DNA of 64,000 nt from Gemmatales bacterium (GTDB lineage: Bacteria > Planctomycetota > Planctomycetia > Gemmatales > HRBIN36), in NCBI GenBank assembly GCA_041640595.1, contig JBEPZY010000001.1, positions 1,175,471-1,239,470 on the forward strand, given 5' to 3'. The notes beneath the pieces were generated by a model. The model ran no database searches and was not told the origin of the DNA. It worked only from the letters and a program-made list of their open reading frames with translations. The position numbers and the translations under genes were made by a program. Positions 8,072-49,708 of this stretch are shown one piece after another (within the stretch, counting starts at the first letter, position 1; the number at the start of each line of letters is the position of its first letter).

Positions 8072-8878
8072 TTAGAGGCTGAAAATGATTTTCCGCTCGT
8101 TGGTTACCAGCAGGAAAATAGCAAGGCCAGCTAGCACGACCACGGTGTTGATGGCTATAAGAAAATCAGCCAGCGGAGGAATGCGGCCATACAGGACCGG
8201 TTCTCTTACCAGCTCTACGATATAACCGAGCGGATTATAGGTCAAAATCGTAACAAGCACTCCTCGTTGAGCGAACATTTGCTTAGGATAAAAAACCGGC
8301 GTAAGATAATAAATCAACTGAAGCAAAATGCCGGCAAGATGATGCGTATCTGGGAAATGCACATTGATGATACCGAAAATGGTCGTCAAAGCCCAGCTAA
8401 AAAAGAAAAGCACCACCAATATGGGCACTAAGATCGGCAAAGCCGCAAGGTTTGCAAAACCCCGAATCATCCAGCTTAGCAGGATGGTGAATGCCAACAG
8501 GATCAAGAAATGTAGTGCCACGCTCAGAGCAGTGCGCAATGAATACATGGCGAGTGGCGCGGGGTAAGAGCGGATATACTTTTCGCCGACGAGTATGCTA
8601 TGGCATCCTTCGAGAACGGAGTTAGAAATAAAACCCCAGATAGCGACACCAGTAAACACATAAGGGGCATACTCGCCCAAGTTCGTTTCTACGAATATCT
8701 GACTAAAAACCAAGCACATGACCGTAGTATAAGCCAGGGGTTGCAGCAATGCCCAGGCAATTCCCAGAAACGACCGGCGATAACGCGCATCGAGATCCAG
8801 CTTGACCAAGGCCAGCCAGAAATAGCGGCGTTTCCAGATTTCAGAGAGATAATGTGCGGTGTAAGAAAGGGCAGCCAT
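8072..8878 (-). CDS. ABC-2 type polysaccharide export permease (Wzm/TagG/KpsM-like)
   Basis: 268 aa with about 6 hydrophobic spans and an N-terminal RYRRSFLGIAWALLQPL motif typical of ABC-2 permeases. Confidence 0.85.
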   Translation of the reverse strand: MAALSYTAHYLSEIWKRRYFWLALVKLDLDARYRRSFLGIAWALLQPLAYTTVMCLVFSQIFVETNLGEYAPYVFTGVAIWGFISNSVLEGCHSILVGEKYIRSYPAPLAMYSLRTALSVALHFLILLAFTILLSWMIRGFANLAALPILVPILVVLFFFSWALTTIFGIINVHFPDTHHLAGILLQLIYYLTPVFYPKQMFAQRGVLVTILTYNPLGYIVELVREPVLYGRIPPLADFLIAINTVVVLAGLAIFLLVTNERKIIFSL

Positions 8879-9053
8879 AGAATGCGTCCCAGTGTGCTCC
8901 GGTTTCTATATCCACAATTGGCCGAATCCTAGCAAAAGATGCAATGAGGCGGAAGGCCAGATTACAAGCATCCAGTGGCCAGCTCGAGGAACGCAGCAAA
9001 TGTCGTTGTTACGGGGCCTGAACGATTGGTGCCTGGCTGGCCGGTGGAAACGG

Positions 9054-9722
9054 TTACAGATACGGTTCATGGACCTCGCGGCTGCGAACAATGCGAGCGG
9101 GAAGACCGTAAGCGACGACCTGATCGGGCAGGTCTTCGACCACCAGGGCCCCTGCTCCAACCACGGTGGCCTTACCAATTCGTCGTCCGTGAAGCACGCA
9201 AGCACCCAGGCAGATAGCAGCGTAGGCGCCCACACAAACACCGCCGCCCAGACACGCATGAGGGCCCAGGCTGGCGAACTCGCCCAGTCGGCAGTCGTGA
9301 TCCACCGAACAATGCGTGTTCAATATGCACCCCGGCCCAATCTCCGCACCGGCATTGACGATGGCTCCAGGCAAAACCACCGTACCGGTTCCCAGTCTGG
9401 CAAAAGGCGAGACCCAAGCCGTGGGATGCACCGCGCTGACAGGCTGCCAGTGCGGAAAACGTTGCAGTATCCGTTGCGTTAGTTGCCAGCGTTGCCAGTT
9501 GTCGCCGATACCGATCACAAAGCCATCAATGCGAAATTGCTCCGCCAAACGCGGCAGGTCGGCGTCGTTTCCCAGTATCGGCACGCCCAAAAGCGAAGTG
9601 CCCGGTGCCAGCCGGGGATCAATGATGCCGGTAACCTGCACGCGATCCTCAGCGAGCAGCGTATCGAGCACGACCCGGGCGTGACCGCCGGCTCCGAAAA
9701 GCAAGACGTTGAGACGCGACAT
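9054..9722 (-). CDS. NeuD/PglD-family sugar O/N-acetyltransferase (hexapeptide repeat)
   Basis: N-terminal Rossmann-like LLFGAGGHARVV followed by left-handed beta-helix repeats (IGPGCILNTHCSVDHDCRLGEFASLGP..). Confidence 0.85.
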   Translation of the reverse strand: MSRLNVLLFGAGGHARVVLDTLLAEDRVQVTGIIDPRLAPGTSLLGVPILGNDADLPRLAEQFRIDGFVIGIGDNWQRWQLTQRILQRFPHWQPVSAVHPTAWVSPFARLGTGTVVLPGAIVNAGAEIGPGCILNTHCSVDHDCRLGEFASLGPHACLGGGVCVGAYAAICLGACVLHGRRIGKATVVGAGALVVEDLPDQVVAYGLPARIVRSREVHEPYL

Positions 9723-9986
9723 AGGATGGTCGCTGTATCAAGCCGGGAATGGTACCGTTCGGCCAAACAAGGGAGATACCAGAACCGGAAGTGTGCGCGA
9801 AGTCCAAATTTACCAGCTCCGCACGGACTCGCTTTGGGCTCCCGTGATCCGCATGGTGACGTCCAAAAACCCTCTTGCTGACCAGCCTGGCAGGGAAATT
9901 TCGTATTGCTCTTGACCTCGGGCCCGAGGCGGGTATGGCAAGGTTGATGGTTCCGGATATCGAACAGCCGAGAATTGGAGGGGCGC

Positions 9987-10472
9987 ATGCGCTGGCAAAT
10001 CACGGCGGCACTGGTTCTAGGAATGGCCTTGGGCTGGTGCCTTGGTGGCGAGTGGTTCCGAGGCGGCAACGTGCGAGCCGGCAACGACCGCTGGCAGGAA
10101 TTTGCTCTGGCCACCGGTGCCATTCTGGCCGGCCCGGTCGGACACGATCAGGATGGCGTCTGGCTGCTCGATTCCAAAAACGGCAAGCTCCTCGCTTCGG
10201 CTGTGAGCCGAACCACAGGCCGTATCTTACCCTGGGCTGAAGTAGATCTTTCGCGGGAGTTCGGACTTGCCTCGCCTGCTCAGGGACAATTCCTCATGAC
10301 TACCGGTCAGGTTGGCCGCGGAGCTTCCGTCTTATTCGTCGCCGAGGTCACCAGTGGTCGGCTGGCAGTTTATTCCATGAGCCTGGCGGAAGGACAAAAT
10401 CCCGGCGTAGTCGTGCGCCGACACGACCTGGTGGCATTTCGTCCCGGCTCGGTGCGTAGCTCTCCTAACTGA
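9987..10472 (+). CDS. hypothetical membrane-anchored protein
   Basis: GGAGGGG Shine-Dalgarno before the ATG at 9987. N-terminal TM segment MRWQITAALVLGMALGWCLG. No recognisable domain. Confidence 0.5.
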   Translation: MRWQITAALVLGMALGWCLGGEWFRGGNVRAGNDRWQEFALATGAILAGPVGHDQDGVWLLDSKNGKLLASAVSRTTGRILPWAEVDLSREFGLASPAQGQFLMTTGQVGRGASVLFVAEVTSGRLAVYSMSLAEGQNPGVVVRRHDLVAFRPGSVRSSPN

Positions 10473-10671
10473 TTCCCTGTCGTGCGATTTCCTGCAACAG
10501 CTGCCGCGCCACTTTGTAGGCGTGGCGGATGGTGACGGCACGAGCTTCGATTTGTTCTGGCGTGTAGTACCGGCCGGGCTCTGCTCGTGGAAGTCCGGCC
10601 AATTCGAGCACCAGGGGAAGCAAGGTTACGAATTCCCGAGCCCGTTGCTGTTGCAATTCCAGTTCAGTCAT
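10465..10671 (-). CDS. small hypothetical protein (68 aa)
   Basis: AAGGAG Shine-Dalgarno 7 nt upstream of the ATG. Balanced helical composition. No known domain. Confidence 0.5.
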   Translation of the reverse strand: MTELELQQQRAREFVTLLPLVLELAGLPRAEPGRYYTPEQIEARAVTIRHAYKVARQLLQEIARQGIS

Positions 10672-10820
10672 GGCTAAGCTCCTTGGCGTGCCTGCCAGCG
10701 AATAACCTCACCGGTGGCCAAGCCGATTTTCGGGTTTGCCTGCTGCCAAACGCCTCGCTTTTTCTTAGCATACCCGAAAATGCGTCCGAGTAAAATAGCC
10801 AGGCTACTGGAGGATGCGCC

Positions 10821-14912: not shown

Positions 14913-16361
14913 ATGCCGACGGATACAGCAACGATTGCCCAGCTCACTCAGCGCGAATACGAGTGGGGCTTTTATACTGACATTGAAGAGGAGAAAGTCC
15001 CTAAGGGACTTAACGAGGATATTATTCGCACCATTTCTCGACTCAAAGGCGAGCCGGATTGGTTGTTAGAATGGCGTCTCAAAGCATATCGGCACTGGTT
15101 GACGATGGAAGAACCGAGGTGGTGGCCCCACATCCAATACAGTCGCATTGATTATCAGGATATCCACTATTACGCAGCACCGAAGCGACGTAAACCGCTG
15201 GCCAGCTTAGACGAAGTGGACCCGGAAATCCGCCGTACTTTTGAAAAACTAGGCATCCCACTCGAGGAGCAAAAACGCTTAGCCGGGGTTGCAGTGGATG
15301 CGGTTTTCGATAGCGTCTCCGTGGCTACCACCTACAAAGAAAAGCTCAAGCAATTGGGCATTATCTTTTGTTCCTTCTCCGAAGCCGTAAGGGAGTACCC
15401 GGACTTGGTGCGACAGTATCTCGGTTCCGTGGTTCCTTATAACGACAACTTTTTCGCTGCCTTGAATTCTGCCGTATTCAGCGACGGATCATTTGTTTAT
15501 GTTCCTCCGGGAGTGCGATGCCCTATGGAACTTTCGACCTATTTCCGGATCAATGCACGGGAAACCGGTCAGTTCGAGCGTACCTTGATTATTGCGGATC
15601 GCGGCAGCTATGTGAGCTACCTCGAAGGTTGCACTGCTCCGATGCGAGATGAGAACCAGTTGCACGCGGCGGTGGTAGAACTTATTGCGCTCGACGAAGC
15701 CGAAATCAAGTATTCCACAGTGCAGAACTGGTATCCGGGTGATAAAGAGGGGCGCGGCGGGATTTACAACTTCGTCACCAAACGCGGTGCATGTCGAGGA
15801 CGTCGCTCGAAAATCTCCTGGACGCAGGTCGAAACCGGTTCGGCAATCACCTGGAAATATCCGAGTGTCATCCTTCAAGGAGATGAATCCGTAGGCGAAT
15901 TCTATTCCGTAGCCGTTACCAATAACTATCAACAGGCCGACACCGGTACGAAGATGATTCATATCGGTAAGCATACACGCAGCACAATCGTTTCAAAAGG
16001 TATTAGCGCGGGGCATGGGCAAAATACCTATCGAGGCTTGGTCAAGGTGATGAAAGGGGCGGCGTATGCCCGCAATTATTCCCAGTGCGATTCCCTGCTC
16101 ATCGGGGACAAATGCGGCGCCCACACCATGCCCTATATCGAGGTTCGCAATTCGACAGCCCGTGTCGAGCATGAGGCCTCGACCTCGAAAATTGGGGAAG
16201 ACCAGATCTTCTATTGTCGCCAGCGGGGCCTTTCAACTGAAGACGCCGTAAACATGATCGTCAACGGATTTTGCAAACAGGTGCTCTTGAATTTGCCTAT
16301 GGAATTTGCAGTGGAAGCCCAAAAGTTGCTGGGAATCAGTTTGGAAGGAAGTGTCGGCTAA
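14913..16361 (+). CDS. sufB: Fe-S cluster assembly scaffold SufB
   Basis: 482 aa with conserved blocks [27 protein letters not shown] and RGLSTEDA, followed by sufC and sufD. Confidence 0.95.
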
Positions 16362-17189: not shown

Positions 17190-18518
17190 ATGCTGAAGAC
17201 ACGCGGGCCAGGAAGTAAAATCACCCAGCAATGGTCGGCTTTCTTGAGAGGTCAGCCGACACAAGAACCTCGTTTCGTCGTAGCCGCCAGGCAAGCGGCA
17301 GAAGCTGCTTTTTCAGAACTTGGCTATCCACTGCGTAGAAATGAAGACTGGAAGTACACCAACGTCGCCGCCGTTGCCCAGACCGCATGGCAACCAGCAC
17401 CACCGGCACAACTGGTGCGCCAGTTTGATTGGGAAGCAGTTCGGGTCATCATCGCCAACGGTCGCGTACTTGATGTACACGTACCGCCTGCCTCGGCCAA
17501 TAAACTTCGCATTATGAACTGGCATGACGCATCTCAAAAGCATGTCGATTTCCTGGAAAGCCATTGGAATCGGACAGCACGCTGGTCTCAGCATGCCTTT
17601 GCCGCGCTTAATGCTATGCTTTTCGAGGATGCGGTTATAGTGCATGTGCTGCCGAATCAAGACCTTGATTTGCCGGTGCATATAGAAATATATCAGCAAG
17701 CAAATGAGCAACTGGAACCACAGGCGGTGTTTCCCCGCATCCTGTTCGTTCTGGGGCAAGGAAGCCGTGCCAGTCTGGTCGAGAGCTACAGTGGCGGTTC
17801 TGAGCGGTGTTTCACCTGCGGAGTGGTAGAACTTATCCTGGAGCGCGGCGCTCACCTTAGTTACTATAAGGTTCAGCAGGAGCACCCAAATAGCATTCAT
17901 ATCGTTCAAGCCTATGCGCGATTGGCACAGCAGGCAGAATTACAAGCTTACATTGTTTCCCTCGGTGGAGGACTGGTGCGAAACGAGTGTGATGTAAGGC
18001 TGGAAGGCGAATACGGTTCTTGCACTTTGAATGGCCTTTATTTAGCGCGGGGCAAGCAACATATTGACAACCATACCGAAATCGAACATCTGGCACCCGC
18101 CTGTACCAGTTACGAATTGTATAAGGGGATACTTAGCGAACGAGGTCACGGCGTTTTTCAGGGCAAGATTTACGTACATCCGGGAGCTCAAAAAACCGAT
18201 GCCAAGCAGACGAATCAGGCCCTGTTGCTTTCCGACGACGCCGAAGTGGACTCTAAGCCTCAATTAGAAATCTACGCCGATGACGTTCGCTGCACTCATG
18301 GAGCGACAGTCGGCCAGTTAGACGAACAACAGCTCTTTTACCTGCAGACCCGGGGGATCGGCAGGGAACAGGCACGAAGCCTGCTGATTTATGCTTTTGC
18401 CGAAGACATCGTCTCTCGGATTCAAGTCGAGCCGGTGCGTCTCCAGCTCGAGGACCTCCTCCTGGCCGAGGAAGGCTTGCCGCTGGAGCGCGAACTCAGG
18501 AGATTGTCGCTGCCATGA
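17190..18518 (+). CDS. sufD: Fe-S cluster assembly protein SufD
   Basis: 442 aa in operon position between sufC and sufS. C-terminal block QLEIYADDVRCTHGATVGQLDEQQLFYLQTRGI. Confidence 0.9.
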   Translation: MLKTRGPGSKITQQWSAFLRGQPTQEPRFVVAARQAAEAAFSELGYPLRRNEDWKYTNVAAVAQTAWQPAPPAQLVRQFDWEAVRVIIANGRVLDVHVPPASANKLRIMNWHDASQKHVDFLESHWNRTARWSQHAFAALNAMLFEDAVIVHVLPNQDLDLPVHIEIYQQANEQLEPQAVFPRILFVLGQGSRASLVESYSGGSERCFTCGVVELILERGAHLSYYKVQQEHPNSIHIVQAYARLAQQAELQAYIVSLGGGLVRNECDVRLEGEYGSCTLNGLYLARGKQHIDNHTEIEHLAPACTSYELYKGILSERGHGVFQGKIYVHPGAQKTDAKQTNQALLLSDDAEVDSKPQLEIYADDVRCTHGATVGQLDEQQLFYLQTRGIGREQARSLLIYAFAEDIVSRIQVEPVRLQLEDLLLAEEGLPLERELRRLSLP

Positions 18519-19783
18519 CCCGCATCACATCTGTACCGGCAGCCCAGAAGAGCATGCTCCGCTCCTGGACACCTGAGACTTTGCGGGCGGAGTTTCCTAT
18601 TCTGCTACGCCCGGTGCGGGGAAAGACGCTGCACTACCTGGATAACGCTGCCACCACCCAGAAACCGCGGGTTGTTATCGAGTCGCTGGTGCGGTATTAT
18701 GAGGAATGGAACGCCAATGTGCATCGCGGCATTCATTATCTAAGCGAACAGGCGACACATGCCTTCGAACAAACACGTACGACCGTGCAGCGGTTTATAG
18801 GTGCTCGTAGTTCGCGCGAGATCATCTTTACACGCGGAACAACAGAAAGTATCAACCTCGTAGCCTGGTCGTTTAGTCGTCGCTTTATGCAGGCGGGTGA
18901 CGAAATTATTATTACGCACTTGGAACATCATTCTAATATCGTGCCCTGGCAGATGGTTTGTGAAGAGCGCGGTCTGAAGTTGCGTGTTGTTCCGTTGACA
19001 CCGGAAGGAGAGTTAGACTGGAAAGTTTTCGAGCGTCTGCTGAGCCCGCGCACGCGACTGGTAGCCGTAGCGCATGTTTCTAATGTGCTTGGGACAGTAA
19101 ATCCGGTGCAAAAAATTGCTGAGCTGGCCCATGCTGCCGGAGCACGGGTTCTTGTAGATGGTGCACAAGCCGCACCGCATTTGCCGGTCAATGTCCAGGA
19201 GCTCGATTGCGACTTTTATGCGTTCTCAGCCCATAAGATGTATGGACCGACGGGCGTAGGCGTGCTTTACGGGAAAGAAGAATTATTAGAGGCTATGCCA
19301 CCTTATCAAGGTGGTGGTGATATGATCGCTTCGGTAACCTTTGAAAAAACGACCTACAATGTGCTACCCTATAAGTTTGAAGCTGGCACGCCGAATATAG
19401 CGGACGTGGTTGCATTCAAGGCGGCTCTGGATTTTCTGAATCAGCTGGGTATGGAAGAAGTAGCCGCCCAGGAGGAGAAGTTGATGGAGTATAGCTTACA
19501 AGCATTACGCGAGATACCCGGGTTGACTATTTACGGCAATCCGGCATGGCGATGCGGTGCCATTGCTTTCAATTTAGACGGCGTCCATCCACACGATTTG
19601 GGAACTGTACTTGATCAGCAGGGTATCGCCATACGCACAGGACATCACTGTGCCCAACCGTTAATGGAGTGGTTAGGAGTCCCAGCTACCGCACGGGCCT
19701 CGCTCGGCATTTACAATACTGCAGAAGATATAGATGCCCTGGTTGCCGGATTGTACCAGGCCCGAGAATTTTTCCGCATGTGA
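18515..19783 (+). CDS. sufS: cysteine desulfurase SufS (class V aminotransferase)
   Basis: PLP-lysine motif FSAHKMYGPTG and active-site RTGHHCAQP. It overlaps the sufD stop by 4 nt. Confidence 0.9.
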   Translation: MTRITSVPAAQKSMLRSWTPETLRAEFPILLRPVRGKTLHYLDNAATTQKPRVVIESLVRYYEEWNANVHRGIHYLSEQATHAFEQTRTTVQRFIGARSSREIIFTRGTTESINLVAWSFSRRFMQAGDEIIITHLEHHSNIVPWQMVCEERGLKLRVVPLTPEGELDWKVFERLLSPRTRLVAVAHVSNVLGTVNPVQKIAELAHAAGARVLVDGAQAAPHLPVNVQELDCDFYAFSAHKMYGPTGVGVLYGKEELLEAMPPYQGGGDMIASVTFEKTTYNVLPYKFEAGTPNIADVVAFKAALDFLNQLGMEEVAAQEEKLMEYSLQALREIPGLTIYGNPAWRCGAIAFNLDGVHPHDLGTVLDQQGIAIRTGHHCAQPLMEWLGVPATARASLGIYNTAEDIDALVAGLYQAREFFRM

Positions 19784-42178: not shown

Positions 42179-42192
42179 TTAGGTTAGCCTAA
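42179..42192. promoter_or_regulatory. palindrome TTAGG-N4-CCTAA (copy 1)
   Basis: TTAGGTTAGCCTAA lies in the AT-rich lpxK / porin-like intergenic region. Confidence 0.25.
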
Positions 42193-42266
42193 TTATTCTG
42201 ATTAGCCAAGCCGAATGATAATTAGTGGTACCTAATGCTCATAGTTAGTGCCACCTAGCTAAGAAA

Positions 42267-42280
42267 TTAGGAAAACCTAA
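42267..42280. promoter_or_regulatory. palindrome TTAGG-N4-CCTAA (copy 2)
   Basis: TTAGGAAAACCTAA lies 21 nt upstream of the ATG at 42301. Confidence 0.25.
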
Positions 42281-42300
42281 CAATATTGCGGAAGGTCTCT

Positions 42301-43161
42301 ATGAACGCATACAGTCTAAACTTAGGCACGATGGCGCTATGGCTGGCATTTTCGGAAACAGTGTTAGCCCAGCTCCCGCCCAATACCGCGTCAGGCAACG
42401 GAATTGATAAACCTGCCTTCCGCCCTACCAGCGAAGCCACAGCCAACAGCCGATCAACTTCGATACGCCGACCAGGGCCTGACACTGCCGATCTACCTGA
42501 CAGCCCTTACGCTGTACCGCCAGGTGTCGTTTACGTTGAAACCGCACTAACCTATCAGCGGAGTAAGTCTCCCGCTGATCATGAGTATTTCACGGCCACA
42601 CTGGTTCGCGTCGGTCTTCTACAGAATTGGGAGCTACGGGTGGGCGGTCCGGGTTTGATCGTTCGGGATGGTTTGCCAGACTCCACTACCGGATTTGGCC
42701 CGATTACCATCGGTGCGAAGTGGCACTGGTGGGAGGAAATCGAGGACAGGGGAACTCCTGCGGCCGGACTGATTTTCCAGGTAACCACCCCAACCGGTTC
42801 CGATGCTTTTCGGCCTGAAATTGCCGAACCGGCTGGCTTCCTCTCTTTTTGCCATCCACTGCCCTGGGAAATGGAATTTGAATGGAACGTTGGTCTTGCT
42901 CTGACCAGGGGCCAATGCGAGCGGACTCAGCTTGAGGGTTGGCTATTGTGGGCTTTGAGCAGGCAAGTTACTCCGAATTTGAACGTATTTATGCACGGCT
43001 ACATAGTTACGCCGGGCCTCGTCAGCGAGACCGAAATCGTTTTGGGGCCTGGTCTGATCTGGTTTATCAGCGAACGAATGGCATTGGATACCAGCTCGGT
43101 TTTCGGCGTTACCGACGATGCTCCTACCATCGCACGCGTGGGATTGAATCTGGCCTTTTAG
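42301..43161 (+). CDS. outer-membrane beta-barrel protein (MetA-pathway/'transporter' family-like)
   Basis: Signal peptide MNAYSLNLGTMALWLAFSETVLAQ. Alternating beta-strand pattern with YVETALTYQR..LVRVGLLQNWELRVGG and a terminal aromatic residue (..LNLAF). Confidence 0.6.
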   Translation: MNAYSLNLGTMALWLAFSETVLAQLPPNTASGNGIDKPAFRPTSEATANSRSTSIRRPGPDTADLPDSPYAVPPGVVYVETALTYQRSKSPADHEYFTATLVRVGLLQNWELRVGGPGLIVRDGLPDSTTGFGPITIGAKWHWWEEIEDRGTPAAGLIFQVTTPTGSDAFRPEIAEPAGFLSFCHPLPWEMEFEWNVGLALTRGQCERTQLEGWLLWALSRQVTPNLNVFMHGYIVTPGLVSETEIVLGPGLIWFISERMALDTSSVFGVTDDAPTIARVGLNLAF

Positions 43162-45794: not shown

Positions 45795-45988
45795 ACCTCT
45801 AACCGTAACCCTGCCGGGCGAAATTGCGTTCGGTACTTGATCCGCGATCAAGCAACGGCAAGAGGAATAATCGCTAGGATGATTGCAAACCGGAATGGTT
45901 CGACTGAATGAACCGCACATCGCTATCCAAGCCGGCTCTACCGAAGAATATCCAGTGCGGATAAGCCAAGTTTGGGAAGGAAGTGGGC

Positions 45989-46441
45989 ATGCTTACGCGG
46001 CAGGAATTCGATGTCATTCTCGCGGACACCACCAAGCGCATCCTGGGAGATATTGATTGGCGAGAAGATGCAGACCATTCTCCGGCCCGCGAATTTCGCA
46101 TCGAGGTTAGCTCGGATAACGGATGGCCCATTTTCATCGTCGGCCGTTGGAATCCCTATGCCGGGACGTTGAGCTACGTTCTCATCCATCGCGGTGCCGG
46201 ACGCATCTACGGACTGGACCTGGGCGCTGATCATCACAATCCTACTTGCGAGCGGGTCGGCGAGAAACATAAGCACGCATGGACTGAAGAATTTCGCGAT
46301 AAGCAGGCTTACGTGCCCAGCGACATCACAGCGTCTTGGGACCAGCCCGTGGAGGTGTGGCGTCAGTTTTGCCGTCAGGCCAACATCACGCACCAGGGTC
46401 AAATGCATCCTCCCTCGGTGCAAGGGGAACTAATCCCATGA
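45989..46441 (+). CDS. hypothetical protein (150 aa) with a His-rich DHHNP..GEKHKHAW motif
   Basis: GGAAGG Shine-Dalgarno and good third-position C/G bias. Its stop overlaps the next gene's start (ATGA at 46438-46441). No domain recognised. Confidence 0.6.
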   Translation: MLTRQEFDVILADTTKRILGDIDWREDADHSPAREFRIEVSSDNGWPIFIVGRWNPYAGTLSYVLIHRGAGRIYGLDLGADHHNPTCERVGEKHKHAWTEEFRDKQAYVPSDITASWDQPVEVWRQFCRQANITHQGQMHPPSVQGELIP

Positions 46442-47214
46442 CTTGCGAAGAACTGCGTGCGCAATTGCACGCATCCGGACATCTGCTATTTGAATGCAGT
46501 CCGGCCCCACGGGAAGGGATCAGAGTCCGGACATTTTTGCTTTATCCGGACGGAGGCATCATTGATGTTTTCGTCGTGGAGCGGGATGGACAGTTAGAGG
46601 TGACCGATTTCGGCGAAGCTTTGGGCTGGCTTCGCCTGCAATCTCCGAGAGGACATCTTTCCCCCAAGCAAAAGCGTCTGATTGCTGACGTATGTCTTAC
46701 CCTGGGCGTGGAATGTTTTCGTGGCCAGCTGGTGTGCCGAGTCAAAAATAATGACGTCTCCGCGGCAGTTCTGAAGGTGGCTCAAGCAGTGCTGCGCGTG
46801 ACCGATTTGTGGTTCACCATGCGCACGCGAGTAATTGAAAATGTCGCAGACGAAGTGGCGGACTGGCTCAGCGAGAAAGGCATTGCCTTTGAACGTGGTG
46901 CCACACACGTCGGTCGTTCGGGACGTGTCTGGACCGTGGACTACCAGACGCACTTGCCTCAACGTACCTCGCTTGTTTTCCTGCTCGCTACAGGTTCGCG
47001 TGCGGCAGCCCGTCGAGTCACCGAACATGTGCTGGCCGGGTTATACGACCTCAGCCACCTCAAGGTAGTGCAGCCCCAGCTTGCGTTCGTCTCACTTTTC
47101 GACGACACCGAGGACGTCTGGCAGGAAGAGGATTTTCGACTCGTCCAGGATTTGTCCGTGGTGGCACGATGGTCGCGGCCGGACGAGTTCGAAAAGATAC
47201 TGCGGGCCGCATGA
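46438..47214 (+). CDS. hypothetical protein (258 aa), possibly DUF1828/DUF1829-like
   Basis: Translationally coupled to the upstream gene. The N-terminal C..L....G..FE......I.V......PDGG.I.V.V.E..G...VTD.G pattern recalls DUF1828. This rests on recollection only. Confidence 0.6.
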   Translation: MTCEELRAQLHASGHLLFECSPAPREGIRVRTFLLYPDGGIIDVFVVERDGQLEVTDFGEALGWLRLQSPRGHLSPKQKRLIADVCLTLGVECFRGQLVCRVKNNDVSAAVLKVAQAVLRVTDLWFTMRTRVIENVADEVADWLSEKGIAFERGATHVGRSGRVWTVDYQTHLPQRTSLVFLLATGSRAAARRVTEHVLAGLYDLSHLKVVQPQLAFVSLFDDTEDVWQEEDFRLVQDLSVVARWSRPDEFEKILRAA

Positions 47215-47620
47215 ATTGCAAACACCGCCGGCTCATTGCCAGGCAACCACCGCTCCGACCCCACAAGCAGCTCTCGGCGACACGCGAACATGAGGCTGAT
47301 TTCTGGCACAGCCGTTCAGGGGCCATATACCCCTACTTACACCACCAGCGTCAGAAAAACAGAACCAGGGTGGAATCCCGCTGGCAGCACGCCACACGTT
47401 ATCGGTGACACGCAGCTATTGTCCCTGTTCACGCTTAGTTACGGGCTTTGTTCACGATAATTTCTTTGGCAAGCCAACGAATAAACACGAGGAGCAAAGT
47501 CAAGGGCAAAACCAGCAGTGCGTTCCGAATATATTTCCTAGCTAGCCCACGGCCAGGCTTCTTTTTTCGGTGCTCAGGCGAACATCCGGAACCGAGTCGG
47601 CAAGGTGGACACCAGGCGAC

Positions 47621-48508
47621 ATGGACACCACGCTGTTAGCCGACAACACCGTCGGCAAAATCTATTTCGCGGATAACCTGGAGGTGCTCAGGACGTTTCC
47701 GGACGAATCGGTGGATTTGATCTACATCGATCCGCCGTTCAACACCGGGAAGGTACAGGAACGCATCTCCATCAAAGCGGTGAGGTCGGAAGAAGGTGAC
47801 CGGGTCGGCTTTCAGGGACGTCGCTACCAAAGCGTCGTCATCGGGAGAAAGCGTTTCGCGGATATGTTCGACGACTACCTGGGCTTCCTGGAACCGCGTC
47901 TGGTCGAAGCCTACCGCATTCTCGCGCCCCACGGATCGCTGTATTTCCATGTGGATTACCGTGAGGTGCACTATTGCAAGGTGCTGCTCGACTGCATATT
48001 TGGCCGACAGTGTTTCCTGAACGAAATCATCTGGGCCTATGACTACGGTGGGCGTCCTAAAGACAGATGGCCGGCTAAACACGACAACATTCTGCTTTAC
48101 GTGAAAAGTCCTGGTCAGCACGTGTTCAATGCAGATGCGATCGAACGCATACCGTATATGGCCCCAGGATTGGTAGGTGCGGAGAAAGCAGCCCGCGGAA
48201 AACTACCGACCGATGTCTGGTGGCACACCATCGTTCCGACCAATAGCGCTGAAAAAACGGGATACCCGACCCAGAAGCCCCTGGGCATCCTTCGCCGCAT
48301 CATTCAGGCCTCTTCTCGACCGGGTGCCGTTGTGCTCGACTTTTTTGCCGGCAGCGGAACGACCGGGATGGCTGCCCTCGAACTGGGCCGCCGCTTTATT
48401 CTCGTGGACAACAACCCCGAAGCCCTGGCAGTGATGGCTCGCCGCTTCGACGGCATCAAAGGAATCACATGGTCCGGCTTCGACCCTGCTGCATCGCGGA
48501 GAATTTGA
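47621..48508 (+). CDS. beta-class N6-adenine/N4-cytosine DNA methyltransferase (N6_N4_Mtase family)
   Basis: Motif IV IDPPFNTG precedes motif I VLDFFAGSGTTGMAA, which is the beta-class order. Also YPTQKPLGILRRII. The start is taken at the ATG at 47621. Confidence 0.9.
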   Translation: MDTTLLADNTVGKIYFADNLEVLRTFPDESVDLIYIDPPFNTGKVQERISIKAVRSEEGDRVGFQGRRYQSVVIGRKRFADMFDDYLGFLEPRLVEAYRILAPHGSLYFHVDYREVHYCKVLLDCIFGRQCFLNEIIWAYDYGGRPKDRWPAKHDNILLYVKSPGQHVFNADAIERIPYMAPGLVGAEKAARGKLPTDVWWHTIVPTNSAEKTGYPTQKPLGILRRIIQASSRPGAVVLDFFAGSGTTGMAALELGRRFILVDNNPEALAVMARRFDGIKGITWSGFDPAASRRI

Positions 48509-48720
48509 ATCCGCAATTTCGATCAAAGGAATCGACTGGTTCGGTTTCGACCCGCTAGCGATTGCGACAGCGTTTCAATCCCACCGATCGAAGGAACCGC
48601 ATGGTCCGGCTTCACCCGCAATGGTCGTTTTGAACGAATCCGTTACCGCGGCACCTAAGGAATATGCTTCGGCTTCGACCGAACCTTTACCGGAAACACG
48701 TCTGGCAGCGGCAAGCGGCG
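48455..48720. repeat. about four diverged tandem units of 63-67 bp, starting inside the methyltransferase 3' end
   Basis: AAGGAAT..GGYTTCGACC cores occur at 48459, 48526, 48591 and 48657 (3 x 66 = 198). Inter-core segments share TTTSAATCC. Confidence 0.75.
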
Positions 48721-48945
48721 GTGCAGTTCTACGGCGACGAGGCGATGAAGCTGCTCCGCGACGCGGTGGCTAAGGGATTCAAGGATGCCGCTCGCATGAA
48801 GAAGGACAGCGCCTTCGACGTGATCTGATTGGAAACAGTCACGGCAACGTCCAGCGCCCGCATGCAAAAGGACAGCGACCTCGACCCGCTGCGGCAACGT
48901 TCCGACTTCCAGCAATTGCTGCAGGAGTTGCTCGGCCCCCGGTGA
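48683..48945 (+). pseudogene. C-terminal fragment of a TPR/kinase-associated protein, with an internal 66-bp duplication
   Basis: ..QFYGDEAMKLLRDAVAKGFKDAARMKKDSAFDVI* is followed by MQKDSDLDPLRQRSDFQQLLQELL*. CGCATGMARAAGGACAGCG occurs at 48793 and 48859. Confidence 0.5.
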
Positions 48946-49406
48946 ATCGGTCAATAACCAGTTTCCCCTGGAAAAGTGCGATGACCGCCCAATGGTGGAC
49001 CACGACGGCCCGAGTCCGCAAGCAGCGGACTGGTGGCCACGTGTCACATGGATTTTTGGCAGGTCGGTTGGCAAATTGGGACACGCCACAACGCCTTCTG
49101 CAACACACGTGAAGGGGAGCGTTATTGTGGCCAGAAGAAAGTCGGTGCCGGAGAGGTTTTCGACAAGAATGGCGGCATCGCCCCTCGCAGTCGGGAACAA
49201 TAGCGGCATGGCCTGCCACAATGGGGGCCGATATTGGTCCCGCAATCAGGATCGCTGCCGAAGCCCCATCGGAGCCTGGTGCTGGCTTGCTAATTCAATC
49301 CAGCCGTCGCTCGATTAGCACCGTCGAGGAATTATTGGACCTTGGTGCGGGCAGCCGGTCGCGGCTCGTCCTCGCAAGCGCAGCAAGCCCCAAAACGCCT
49401 CGTGCA

Positions 49407-49503
49407 CGGTTTACTGGCGAGCAGTTTGTACCTACCCCTACATCGGTTTCAAACTCTGGTTCTGATCCCGCTCGGTTTACTGGCGAGCAGTTTATGCCTA
49501 CCC
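49407..49503. repeat. 66-bp-period duplication (31-nt core + 35-nt filler)
   Basis: CGGTTTACTGGCGAGCAGTTTRTRCCTACCC occurs at 49407 and 49473. Confidence 0.85.
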
Positions 49504-49657
49504 GCACCGCCGTCTGATGGATCCCCAGAAAGCTGAAGAGGTGACGCAGGCCTTCTTTGCGAAGCTGCTGGCCAGGAAATACCTCCACGCACTCACGCCA
49601 ACACGGGGACAATTCCGAGCATTTCTGCTGACCGCTTGCCGGCGTTTCCTGCAATAA
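49408..49657 (+). pseudogene. fragment of an ECF-like sigma-70 factor (region 2), disrupted
   Basis: The frame reads ..VYWRAVYAYPHRRLMDPQKAEEVTQAFFAKLLARKYLHALTPTRGQFRAFLLTACRRFLQ*, truncated after about 46 aa. The upstream duplicate copy reads VYWRAVCTYPYIGFKLWF*. Confidence 0.5.
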
Positions 49658-49708
49658 GCGCTGGAGCCGGGCCGCCCTACAGAAGCGCGACGACGTGCGG
49701 GGCGGCGG

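Follow-up and report, generated by a model that had tools for sequence, protein, structure and literature searches.

A candidate PDC-M24 cassette beside a solitary beta-class DNA methyltransferase in a Gemmatales bacterium

Three genes that had been proposed as an atypical restriction–modification (R-M) or defence module are, in all likelihood, two independent units that adjoin incidentally: a two-gene cassette (genes A and B), whose products would act as a complex, and a solitary, vertically inherited DNA methyltransferase. They are not a new kind of R-M system. On sequence comparison, A-B is a copy of PDC-M24 (phage defence candidate, multi-gene no. 24). PDC-M24 belongs to a set of 145 untested candidates defined through 'guilt by embedding', from their location inside BREX, DISARM or Type I R-M systems (Payne, Hughes, Fineran & Jackson, bioRxiv 10.1101/2024.01.29.577857). 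The features of the locus are listed in Table 1; the window is the whole 64,000-nucleotide stretch of Gemmatales bacterium DNA that was analysed.

Table 1. Features of the A-B and methyltransferase locus (positions in the window)
Feature	Position	Strand	Description
Gene A	45989-46441	+	150 aa from ATG; DUF6978 / PDC-M24A
Gene B	46438-47214	+	258 aa; PDC-M24B
Overlap of the A stop and B start codons (ATGA)	46438-46441	+	Read directly in the sequence; translational coupling
Methyltransferase gene	47621-48508	+	295 aa; beta-class DNA methyltransferase
A-B cargo segment	45803-47542	n/a	1740 bp; blastn against L084
Cargo 3' tail	47215-47542	n/a	Non-coding
Methyltransferase's own conserved 5' region	47543-47620	+	78 bp common to L084; blastn identity of 93% resumes at 47543
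Deletion scars	48509-49708	n/a	blastn against L079 and gene calls

Gene products and their structural relatives

All three genes are real and intact, with open reading frames as given in the initial annotation, and the ATGA overlap of A and B is directly visible. Homologues of A begin at the same methionine. The methyltransferase frame opens at GTG 47570, and the real start is the ATG listed in Table 1, as judged from JGI gene calls in sibling contigs and from homologues; it lies 406 bp after the stop codon of B, in agreement with the spacing of about 400 bp estimated at first. Both A and B match their PADLOC models nearly end to end and are adjacent on the same strand: A matches PDC-M24A (PDLC04533, E = 5e-67, residues 1-144 of 150), and B matches PDC-M24B (PDLC04540, E = 8.8e-86, residues 3-256 of 258).

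Gene A belongs to Pfam DUF6978 over its full length (6e-13). The DHHNP...GEKHKHAW cluster noted initially is present, and it lies in a loop (DHHNPxC...GEKHKHxW) that carries a His triad, H82, H94 and H96, conserved throughout the family. The AlphaFold2 (AF2) model of A is beta-rich (pLDDT 82.7), with the motif loop itself modelled at low confidence (pLDDT 51-63). This model gave no significant or informative Foldseek match in PDB or BFVD, and a search of PDB sequences with the A profile found nothing. The proposed resemblance to His-Me-finger nucleases gained no support from Pfam or Foldseek, and concerns precisely the low-confidence loop of the model. An exhaustive profile search recovered 512 representatives, essentially all of them stand-alone proteins of about 150 aa; the seven longer matches, checked with Pfam, had no informative partner domain.

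Gene B encodes two domains. The N-terminal domain (residues 1-130) is DUF1828 (Pfam 8.6e-9 for residues 35-121, above the cut-off). The C-terminal domain (residues 135-258) is, as modelled, a PD-(D/E)xK-like domain, putatively of the DUF1829 type. In the AF2 model of B (pLDDT 89), the secondary structure of residues 135-221 follows an alpha-beta-beta-beta-alpha-beta topology, and the top Foldseek matches of B are all PD-(D/E)xK proteins with probabilities up to 1.0 (Cdn1, Can2, VC1899, R2 RLE, AF1548, Bax1 and BstEII, with the small subunit of BspD6I also matched), at modest TM-scores of 0.26-0.33 over the whole query. Among the candidate catalytic residues only E139 and D168 are conserved, and the domain has no identifiable (D/E)xK triad, with none on strand 3 (residues 177-183, TSLVFLL). 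Its other invariant motifs are GRSG, TGS and DDTED. Searching PDB sequences with the B profile found nothing. A relationship of B to the N-terminal nuclease domain of HsdR was considered and rejected (hhalign probability 0.4%).

The reading of B as DUF1828/1829-like stands for DUF1828 by Pfam; for DUF1829, B itself has no Pfam match, and its motifs align by eye with those of canonical paralogues (GKSG..D-F with GRSG..D-Y in B, and ILNDSD with SLFDDTED). The B profile reaches these DUF1828-DUF1829 proteins at 9e-8. At 254 aa they share the length and two-domain plan of B and sit in the same Type I operons, whereas the C-terminal domain of B has diverged too far to be recognised by the Pfam DUF1829 model. 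Experiments have linked DUF1829 to defence through DS-6B of HipAD, the one studied DUF1829 protein, which is a non-toxic, DNA-binding partner (DefensePredictor, PMC13092281). By analogy, B may be a regulator rather than an effector. DS-6B differs in its partners, with DUF3037 and a HipA kinase alongside DUF1829 in place of DUF6978. The best Foldseek matches of B, Can2/Card1/Cdn1 and VC1899 (approximately 215-222 columns), also consist of two domains, a sensor followed by a PD-(D/E)xK nuclease at the C-terminus. However, their RMSD to B is high (10-12 Å), the N-terminal domain of B is not Rossmann-like by secondary structure, and cyclic-oligoadenylate machinery was not found near A-B. Judged from the models, the resemblance to these CARF-nuclease effectors is architectural only.

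The initial placement of the third gene among beta-class methyltransferases with motif IV before motif I agrees with Pfam, the PDB relatives and a reading of the sequence. The protein belongs to Pfam N6_N4_Mtase (2.4e-46, above the cut-off), has its DPPF motif IV before its FAGSGTTG motif I, and matches PADLOC MTase_II (3.7e-145). Its closest relatives of solved structure are the beta-class enzymes M.RsrI (7.6e-29), CcrM and M.MboIIA, which share the family, the motif order and the DPPF catalytic motif. The enzyme is probably N6-adenine specific. We rejected its identification as a CcrM-type alphaproteobacterial cell-cycle enzyme; it scores 83 bits against the NCBIfam CcrM equivalog cut-off of 830, and also falls below the YhdJ cut-off.

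Distribution of A-B and its place in Type I operons

We compared 61 dereplicated genome loci that contain A-B relatives. Type I genes occur within 10 kb in 31 of the 61. In 18 loci the pair is strictly embedded in the order hsdM-hsdS-[A-B]-hsdR, and inclusion of three DUF1828::HsdR fusions raises this to 21/61; the order recurs in independent lineages. These operons correspond to the defining context of PDC-M24. Together with the PADLOC match, they bear out the initial view of A-B as a pair of co-translated genes with links to defence, and they run counter to the outcome that would have spoken against it, namely homologues never found near methyltransferases or defence genes. The copy in the window, in contrast to the defining context, is not embedded in any defence system: HsdM, HsdS and HsdR models matched none of the window's open reading frames, and A-B does not lie between hsd genes. 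The remaining loci of the census stand alone among unrelated housekeeping neighbours, with no neighbour family in more than 2 of 75 proteins.

Three observations support an A-B complex. First, the two genes overlap by ATGA, GTGA or TTGA in 33 of the 41 relatives with an intact A. Second, they are naturally fused as A::B in one genome (L064). Third, in three Latescibacterota genomes the DUF1828 N-terminal domain is fused in frame to a full-length HsdR, and each fusion retains A upstream. Both genes are under purifying selection (dN/dS 0.05-0.07). A tblastn search with B against plasmids, phages and IMG/VR found none, and B gave only weak matches in PHROG.

A less probable reading of these data is that A-B is a selfish toxin–antitoxin or addiction cassette that lacks any role dedicated to phage defence and gathers in R-M operons and permissive slots since insertions there are tolerated and co-transferred. 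It would suit two small, translationally coupled genes, whose co-directional overlapping layout fits that of Type II toxin–antitoxin pairs, as well as a patchy distribution over more than 10 phyla at 55-80% identity across phyla. The stand-alone loci among housekeeping genes, the VapBC-like pairs that share the same operons as A-B relatives, and the window copy as swapped-in cargo point the same way. Nevertheless, neither A nor B matches a known toxin or antitoxin family in Pfam or NCBIfam, and a strict placement between hsdS and hsdR, like the in-frame fusions, suggests more than passive hitch-hiking. Toxin–antitoxin and abortive-infection roles are, moreover, not mutually exclusive.

We regard as unlikely a reading in which A-B is a Type I R-M accessory that docks on HsdR via DUF1828, whether as a regulator or as a PrrC/EcoprrI-type guard triggered by the inhibition of restriction, with the window copy decoupled or serving a distal Type I system. 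In its favour, about one third of the loci show strict same-strand embedding, and L066, L072 and L073 have a stand-alone DUF1828 domain between hsdS and hsdR. There is also a precedent in PrrC, an accessory module held in check inside the EcoprrI Type I operon; A-B relatives are likewise inserted between Type I genes, and the DUF1828::HsdR fusions hint at a physical coupling to the R-M complex. PrrC, however, combines an ABC-ATPase and an anticodon nuclease in a single gene and has no sequence or fold relation to A-B. Half of the A-B loci lack Type I genes within 10 kb, the fusions occur in a single phylum and may have arisen by deletion, and B and HsdR share no profile similarity. Furthermore, TgvAB, a GmrSD-like Type IV system whose two genes lie inside the VPI-2 Type I operon of V. 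cholerae, acts independently of HsdR (PMC11411939). TgvAB resembles the embedded A-B relatives as a two-gene cassette nested in hsdMSR, but it carries DUF262 and DUF1524 (His-Me finger) domains, to which those of A and B are unrelated.

Probable separate histories of the cassette and the methyltransferase

In the loci surveyed, a methyltransferase of this family has A-B as its neighbour only in the lineage of the window. Of 63 B-centred loci, only that of a near-identical twin contig (L001) carries a like methyltransferase, apart from one weak match at the far edge of another (L074), and neither A nor B lies near the methyltransferase relatives in any of 80 methyltransferase-centred loci. A syntenic relative, L084, keeps the methyltransferase (93% identical) at the same locus without A-B: homology ends at 45802 and resumes at the 3' border of the cargo segment, which is replaced by 1262 bp of unrelated sequence. 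In this comparison the dS of the methyltransferase, 0.263, matches the 0.273 of the flanking gene. The 5' region that it shares with L084 indicates that its expression signals are independent of A-B. At the borders of the cargo we found only chance-level matches to terminal repeats, in the flanks of the cassette no remnants of hsdS, hsdR or hsdM, and in the 3' tail no conserved open reading frame, Rfam match or hsdR/hsdS remnant.

The methyltransferase family has a restriction enzyme of its own. In 10 of 54 relatives (approximately 19%), the gene immediately after the methyltransferase encodes a different PD-(D/E)xK protein of about 190 aa (PADLOC REase_II, 5.5e-33); the family is also found in solitary contexts, in Roseiflexus and others. 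Neither this enzyme nor a remnant of it was detected by tblastn near the methyltransferase in the window; apparent remnant matches turned out to be methyltransferase C-termini within stop-to-stop frames. No gene for a restriction enzyme, a specificity subunit, a controller or a Type I component could be recognised in the window, as the initial description of an orphan had it. The L084 synteny, which finds the methyltransferase solitary and conserved at this locus, the 0/80 count and the different downstream enzyme lead us to conclude that it is an orphaned Type II enzyme and that A-B is swapped-in cargo.

It is therefore highly improbable that A and B are the two subunits of a restriction nuclease whose partner is the methyltransferase downstream, in an R-M or defence module resembling an atypical Type II system, as first proposed. 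The three genes do share a strand within 2.5 kb, B is PD-(D/E)xK-like with BstEII and the BspD6I small subunit among its fold matches, and no other restriction enzyme is nearby, but the pairing is largely refuted by synteny and the two censuses. The methyltransferase's own 5' region and its 406-bp distance from B also count against the pairing, and in a sibling (L080) the methyltransferase is frameshifted by a 1-bp deletion in a GGG run, which may be an assembly error, while A-B is intact.

In L084 the replacing sequence holds a decayed DUF4357 gene (Pfam 6.5e-13). The slot upstream of the methyltransferase has accordingly received cargo of an R-M-associated type in two lineages, A-B here and DUF4357 there; such repetition may point to an attraction that is not random. 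It is conceivable that a Type I system lies elsewhere in the genome, or that the adjoining methyltransferase is put to some functional use.

The right-hand border had been described as decayed gene fragments and repeat arrays typical of variable or defence islands. The fragments at 48.5-49.7 kb are indeed decayed, as deletion scars relative to a sibling strain (L079), with the loss of a 1084-aa Ser/Thr-kinase/TPR gene and a 497-aa gene; they include a remnant of the 3' end of the kinase gene and an ECF-sigma-like fragment, and tblastn found no restriction-enzyme remnant among them. The repeats amount to weak arrays of 2-4 copies at a spacing of about 66 nt, and TRF found nothing there. The surrounding genes are housekeeping genes (LPS core genes, DnaK and PheA), so the locus does not represent a defence island. 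When ten further large open reading frames of the window were scanned with PADLOC, no convincing defence system emerged; SufS (18515-19780) matches SspA/DndA models, but was rejected as a defence gene because it adjoins SufBD. Scans for Rfam families, tRNAs, promoters and terminators gave nothing useful.

Proposed mode of action and implications

We favour two independent units. A-B would be an autonomous, horizontally mobile two-gene cassette that is found characteristically between hsdS and hsdR of Type I operons, or else alone among housekeeping genes; here it appears to occupy a variable site for cargo, flanked by an 804-aa chromosomal gene and the methyltransferase. The latter would be the vertically inherited lone survivor of a Type II R-M family whose true enzyme is the different protein downstream in some relatives. 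A mobile cassette next to a vertically inherited survivor would make their adjacency incidental. A and B may be made together and act as a complex, in which the DUF1828 domain of B could serve as a docking or regulatory module, its C-terminal domain could bind or cut nucleic acid, and the His triad of A could form a metal site, catalytic or sensory. Such a pair would constitute a toxin–antitoxin-like or abortive-infection defence module, which may be coupled to HsdR where it lies in Type I operons.

A bolder and rather improbable extension is that PDC-M24 is more than a passenger and serves Type I restriction enzymes as a dedicated partner. DUF1828 would dock on HsdR, as frozen in the fusions, A would sense a phage cue or an anti-restriction protein, and the PD-(D/E)xK-like domain would be a back-up effector. 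If so, the stand-alone copy in the window would show that the module also works autonomously.

A new atypical R-M system would have mattered, and that reading fails. The case also carries a caution: a nuclease-like gene beside an orphan methyltransferase is no evidence of an R-M pair until the synteny of relatives has been checked. What the window does provide is a clean, intact copy of PDC-M24, a candidate defence system that is widespread across phyla. The two-domain architecture of B, the His triad of A, the conserved translational coupling and the natural A::B and DUF1828::HsdR fusions give new handles on this system, with concrete mutants and partners.

Identity of the A-B gene pair and of the downstream methyltransferase

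Direct reading of the sequence confirmed the three open reading frames and the overlap between A and B as described in the initial annotation. The true start of the methyltransferase is ATG 47621, which agrees with gene calls made independently on sibling contigs and with the homologues and leaves a gap of 406 bp after the stop codon of B. Its assignment to the beta class, with DPPF ahead of FAGSGTTG, is borne out by a Pfam N6_N4_Mtase match (2.4e-46) and by the closest solved structures (M.RsrI, CcrM and M.MboIIA), all of which are beta-class.

Coordinates of the A-B pair and the methyltransferase in the window
Feature	Position	Strand	Description
Gene A	45989-46441	+	150 aa; ORF read directly
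Gene B	46438-47214	+	258 aa; ORF read directly
A stop/B start overlap	46438-46441	+	ATGA; read directly
Methyltransferase	47621-48508	+	295 aa from ATG 47621; ORF opens at GTG 47570

A is a full-length DUF6978 protein (Pfam, 6e-13), and B contains a DUF1828 match at residues 35-121 (Pfam, 8.6e-9); neither has an NCBIfam match. In PADLOC, A and B match PDC-M24A (5e-67) and PDC-M24B (8.8e-86), respectively, almost end to end. The source of the PDC systems is Payne et al. (bioRxiv 10.1101/2024.01.29.577857). A literature search returned no mention of PDC-M24 and no function for DUF6978, for which one preprint merely repeats the annotation 'putative metal-binding histidines'. The matches support the earlier view of A-B as a defence candidate, but not as something new, since the pair is already catalogued; A-B is another case of a known candidate system, PDC-M24.

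The resident methyltransferase and the surroundings of the locus

The METHYLTRANSFERASE is a resident gene separate from A-B. The sibling contigs (98-99% identical) share the order 804-aa gene, A, B and methyltransferase. We compared the window with a more distant syntenic relative, L084 (GCA_053493615.1; DNA 88-93% identical, methyltransferase 93%), in which the order is GT9, PfkB, a hypothetical gene, LpxK, OMP, an 801-aa gene, the slot preceding the methyltransferase, the methyltransferase itself, DnaK and PheA. Homology ends at 45802, 8 bp past the stop of the 804-aa gene, and restarts at 47543, 78 bp ahead of the methyltransferase ATG. The slot measures 1740 bp and holds A-B in the window, whereas in L084 it measures 1262 bp (8660-9921) and holds a frameshifted DUF4357 pseudogene (Pfam 6.5e-13), with no traces of A or B. 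This makes the slot that precedes the orphan methyltransferase a variable cargo site. The methyltransferase and the flanking 804-aa gene have equal dS values against L084 (0.263 and 0.273, respectively), which shows that the methyltransferase diverged together with the chromosome.

The methyltransferase family is unusually conserved: even between distant phyla, with members in Roseiflexus, Anaerolineae and Ozemobacter, identity is ~65-84%. We also took a census of 80 metagenome loci centred on methyltransferase relatives (39 with at least 2 kb of upstream and 54 with at least 700 bp of downstream sequence), and neither A nor B was found at any of them. Given this absence and the L084 methyltransferase without A-B, the proposal that the three genes form an atypical R-M module is not supported. 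Directly downstream of the methyltransferase, on the same strand, 14 of the 80 loci (10 of the 54 with at least 700 bp downstream, ~19%) carry a ~190-aa gene for a PD-(D/E)xK restriction enzyme with a PADLOC REase_II match (5.5e-33) and a textbook D...EIK motif. No remnant of this enzyme was found in the window, in L079 (a sibling contig) or in the compared loci L084, L081 and L085, and other methyltransferase homologues stand alone among housekeeping genes, the family being mostly solitary. Thus, the methyltransferase is an orphaned Type II enzyme, neither a CcrM-type cell-cycle enzyme nor a partner of A-B; it scores far below the NCBIfam cut-offs for both CcrM and YhdJ. In the sibling contig L080, the methyltransferase is frameshifted by the loss of 1 bp from a GGG run at ~11855 (window ~47843), and A-B is intact. 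The frameshift may mark a genuine pseudogene or be an assembly error at the homopolymer in this metagenome contig, so it speaks only weakly against dependence of A-B on the methyltransferase.

Regarding the right border (48.5-49.7 kb), the interpretation as defence-island debris is replaced by gene losses. Compared with L079 (12945-19015), two genes are missing from window 48509-49708, a 1084-aa Ser/Thr-kinase/TPR gene and one of 497 aa. The ~3.3-kb loss of the kinase gene is bounded by repeats of the 'KDSxxD' C-terminal motif (48789-48819 and 48855-48885), and an ECF-sigma-like fragment is left at 49517-49657. The locus is flanked by LPS-core genes and DnaK/PheA, its GC content is unremarkable, and it contains no tRNAs or Rfam matches. 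The L079 kinase matches PADLOC PD-T4-6 models, as is expected of any Ser/Thr kinase. A ~32-nt motif, ATCAAAGGAATCACATGGTCCGGCTTCGACCC, is present at 48455-48690 in four degenerate copies (~81-84% identical) spaced 65-67 nt apart; the first falls within the 3' end of the methyltransferase and the other three come after the stop codon. This array is also present in L079, and L084 has copy 1 only; TRF reported nothing, and the lag-66 autocorrelation was not above that of control regions. Window 42187-43099 is another indel polymorphism at the locus, and both the window and L084 carry a Phenol_MetA_deg-type outer-membrane protein gene (291 aa, 42286-43161) that L079 and L080 lack. Finally, ORF 18515-19780, with PADLOC matches to SspA (1.5e-59) and DndA (3.7e-58), adjoins SufBD (14913-16358); its most likely identity is SufS, a housekeeping cysteine desulfurase, which makes the defence match a false positive.

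Genomic settings of A-B relatives and a possible tie to HsdR

Detectable homologues number 908 for B and 723 for A. In each of four independent B-homologue neighbourhoods (69-77% identical; Pfam-annotated), the order on one strand is HsdM-HsdS-[A-B]-HsdR, and some of these operons embed extra genes, e.g. AAA_14/DUF4143, Fic or SLFN. A B-centred census of species-representative genomes gave 63 loci (61 after dereplication) from Binatia, Acidobacteriota, Chloroflexota, Latescibacterota, Myxococcota, Poribacteria, Tectimicrobiota and several proteobacterial classes, on which local HMMs for A, B, HsdM, HsdS, HsdR and the window methyltransferase were mapped. Type I genes lie within 10 kb of A-B in 31 of the 61 loci; strict embedding, in which hsdM or hsdS precedes A-B and hsdR follows it on the same strand, occurs in 18, and a further three carry a DUF1828::HsdR fusion. 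Loci without Type I genes are mostly from Dehalococcoidia and are flanked by unrelated housekeeping functions, each Pfam family occurring in at most 2 of the 75 neighbours. Therefore, A-B behaves as an autonomous cassette, for which the Type I operon is a preferred but not obligatory home. Apart from that of the twin contig, which is 99% identical, the only window-like methyltransferase was one weak match at the far edge of L074. Searches of sequenced plasmids and phages and of IMG/VR contigs found no copies of A-B, and the weak PHROG matches suggest distant phage relatives only. By eye, pairs resembling a Phd/YefM antitoxin and a PIN (VapBC) toxin adjoin B within its Type I operon in L023, L025, L026, L031 and L066.

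Several observations indicate that A and B function jointly and point to a link with HsdR. A and B are under purifying selection (dN/dS 0.05-0.07 against distant relatives), and a 4-nt overlap of the A stop and B start (ATGA, GTGA or TTGA) is found in 33 of the 41 loci with intact A. The two are fused into one 416-aa ORF (DUF6978 + DUF1828 by Pfam) in L064, a Dehalococcoidia genome (9551-10801). In L015, the 'B' gene (10001-10774) is a deletion derivative in which residues 1-25 of A run straight into B at about its residue 28. The DUF1828::HsdR fusions, from three Latescibacterota genomes (L069, L070 and L071; 10001-13561), are in-frame proteins of 1186 aa that combine the first ~127 residues of B with full-length HsdR; A is kept upstream of all three and overlaps the fusion start by 4 nt. 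Related genomes (L066, L072 and L073) have the DUF1828 domain alone between hsdS and hsdR, and in the operons of L017 and L039 a canonical 254-aa DUF1828+DUF1829 paralogue directly follows B.

Predicted structures and proposed mechanism

The AF2 model of B (pLDDT 89) shows two domains, both confident, with a flexible linker between them at ~130-133. The topology of the C-domain is alpha-beta-beta-beta-alpha-beta, and its Foldseek matches in the PDB (Cdn1, Can2, VC1899, R2 restriction-like endonuclease, AF1548, Bax1, BstEII and the BspD6I small subunit) all belong to the PD-(D/E)xK superfamily, with probability up to 1.0 and modest TM-scores. The conserved residues (E139, GRSG159-162, W165, D168, TGS185-187, R192/R193, E196 and DDTED222-226) include no clear (D/E)xK on strand 3, so that nuclease activity of B is only plausible. 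No profile similarity was seen between B and the nuclease domain of HsdR. Among DUF1829 proteins, only DS-6B of HipAD has been studied; it is the non-toxic partner and a predicted DNA binder (PMC13092281). For A, the model (pLDDT 82.7) shows a beta-rich fold, and nothing in the PDB or BFVD matched it significantly. The Pfam and Foldseek results speak neither for nor against a His-Me-finger fold of A. Across 512 family representatives, A is a ~150-aa stand-alone protein in which H94 alone is invariant, H82 and H96 are conserved in at least 90% and the cysteines are not conserved; this pattern looks like a His-triad metal site.

In the mechanism we propose, A and B would form a complex in which DUF1828 of B would be a docking or regulatory domain, the PD-(D/E)xK-like domain would bind or cleave nucleic acid and the His triad of A would bind metal. 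A-B may be a defence module of the toxin-antitoxin-like or abortive-infection type, with a possible coupling to HsdR where it is embedded in a Type I operon. The fusions offer some experimental traction on PDC-M24, an untested candidate.
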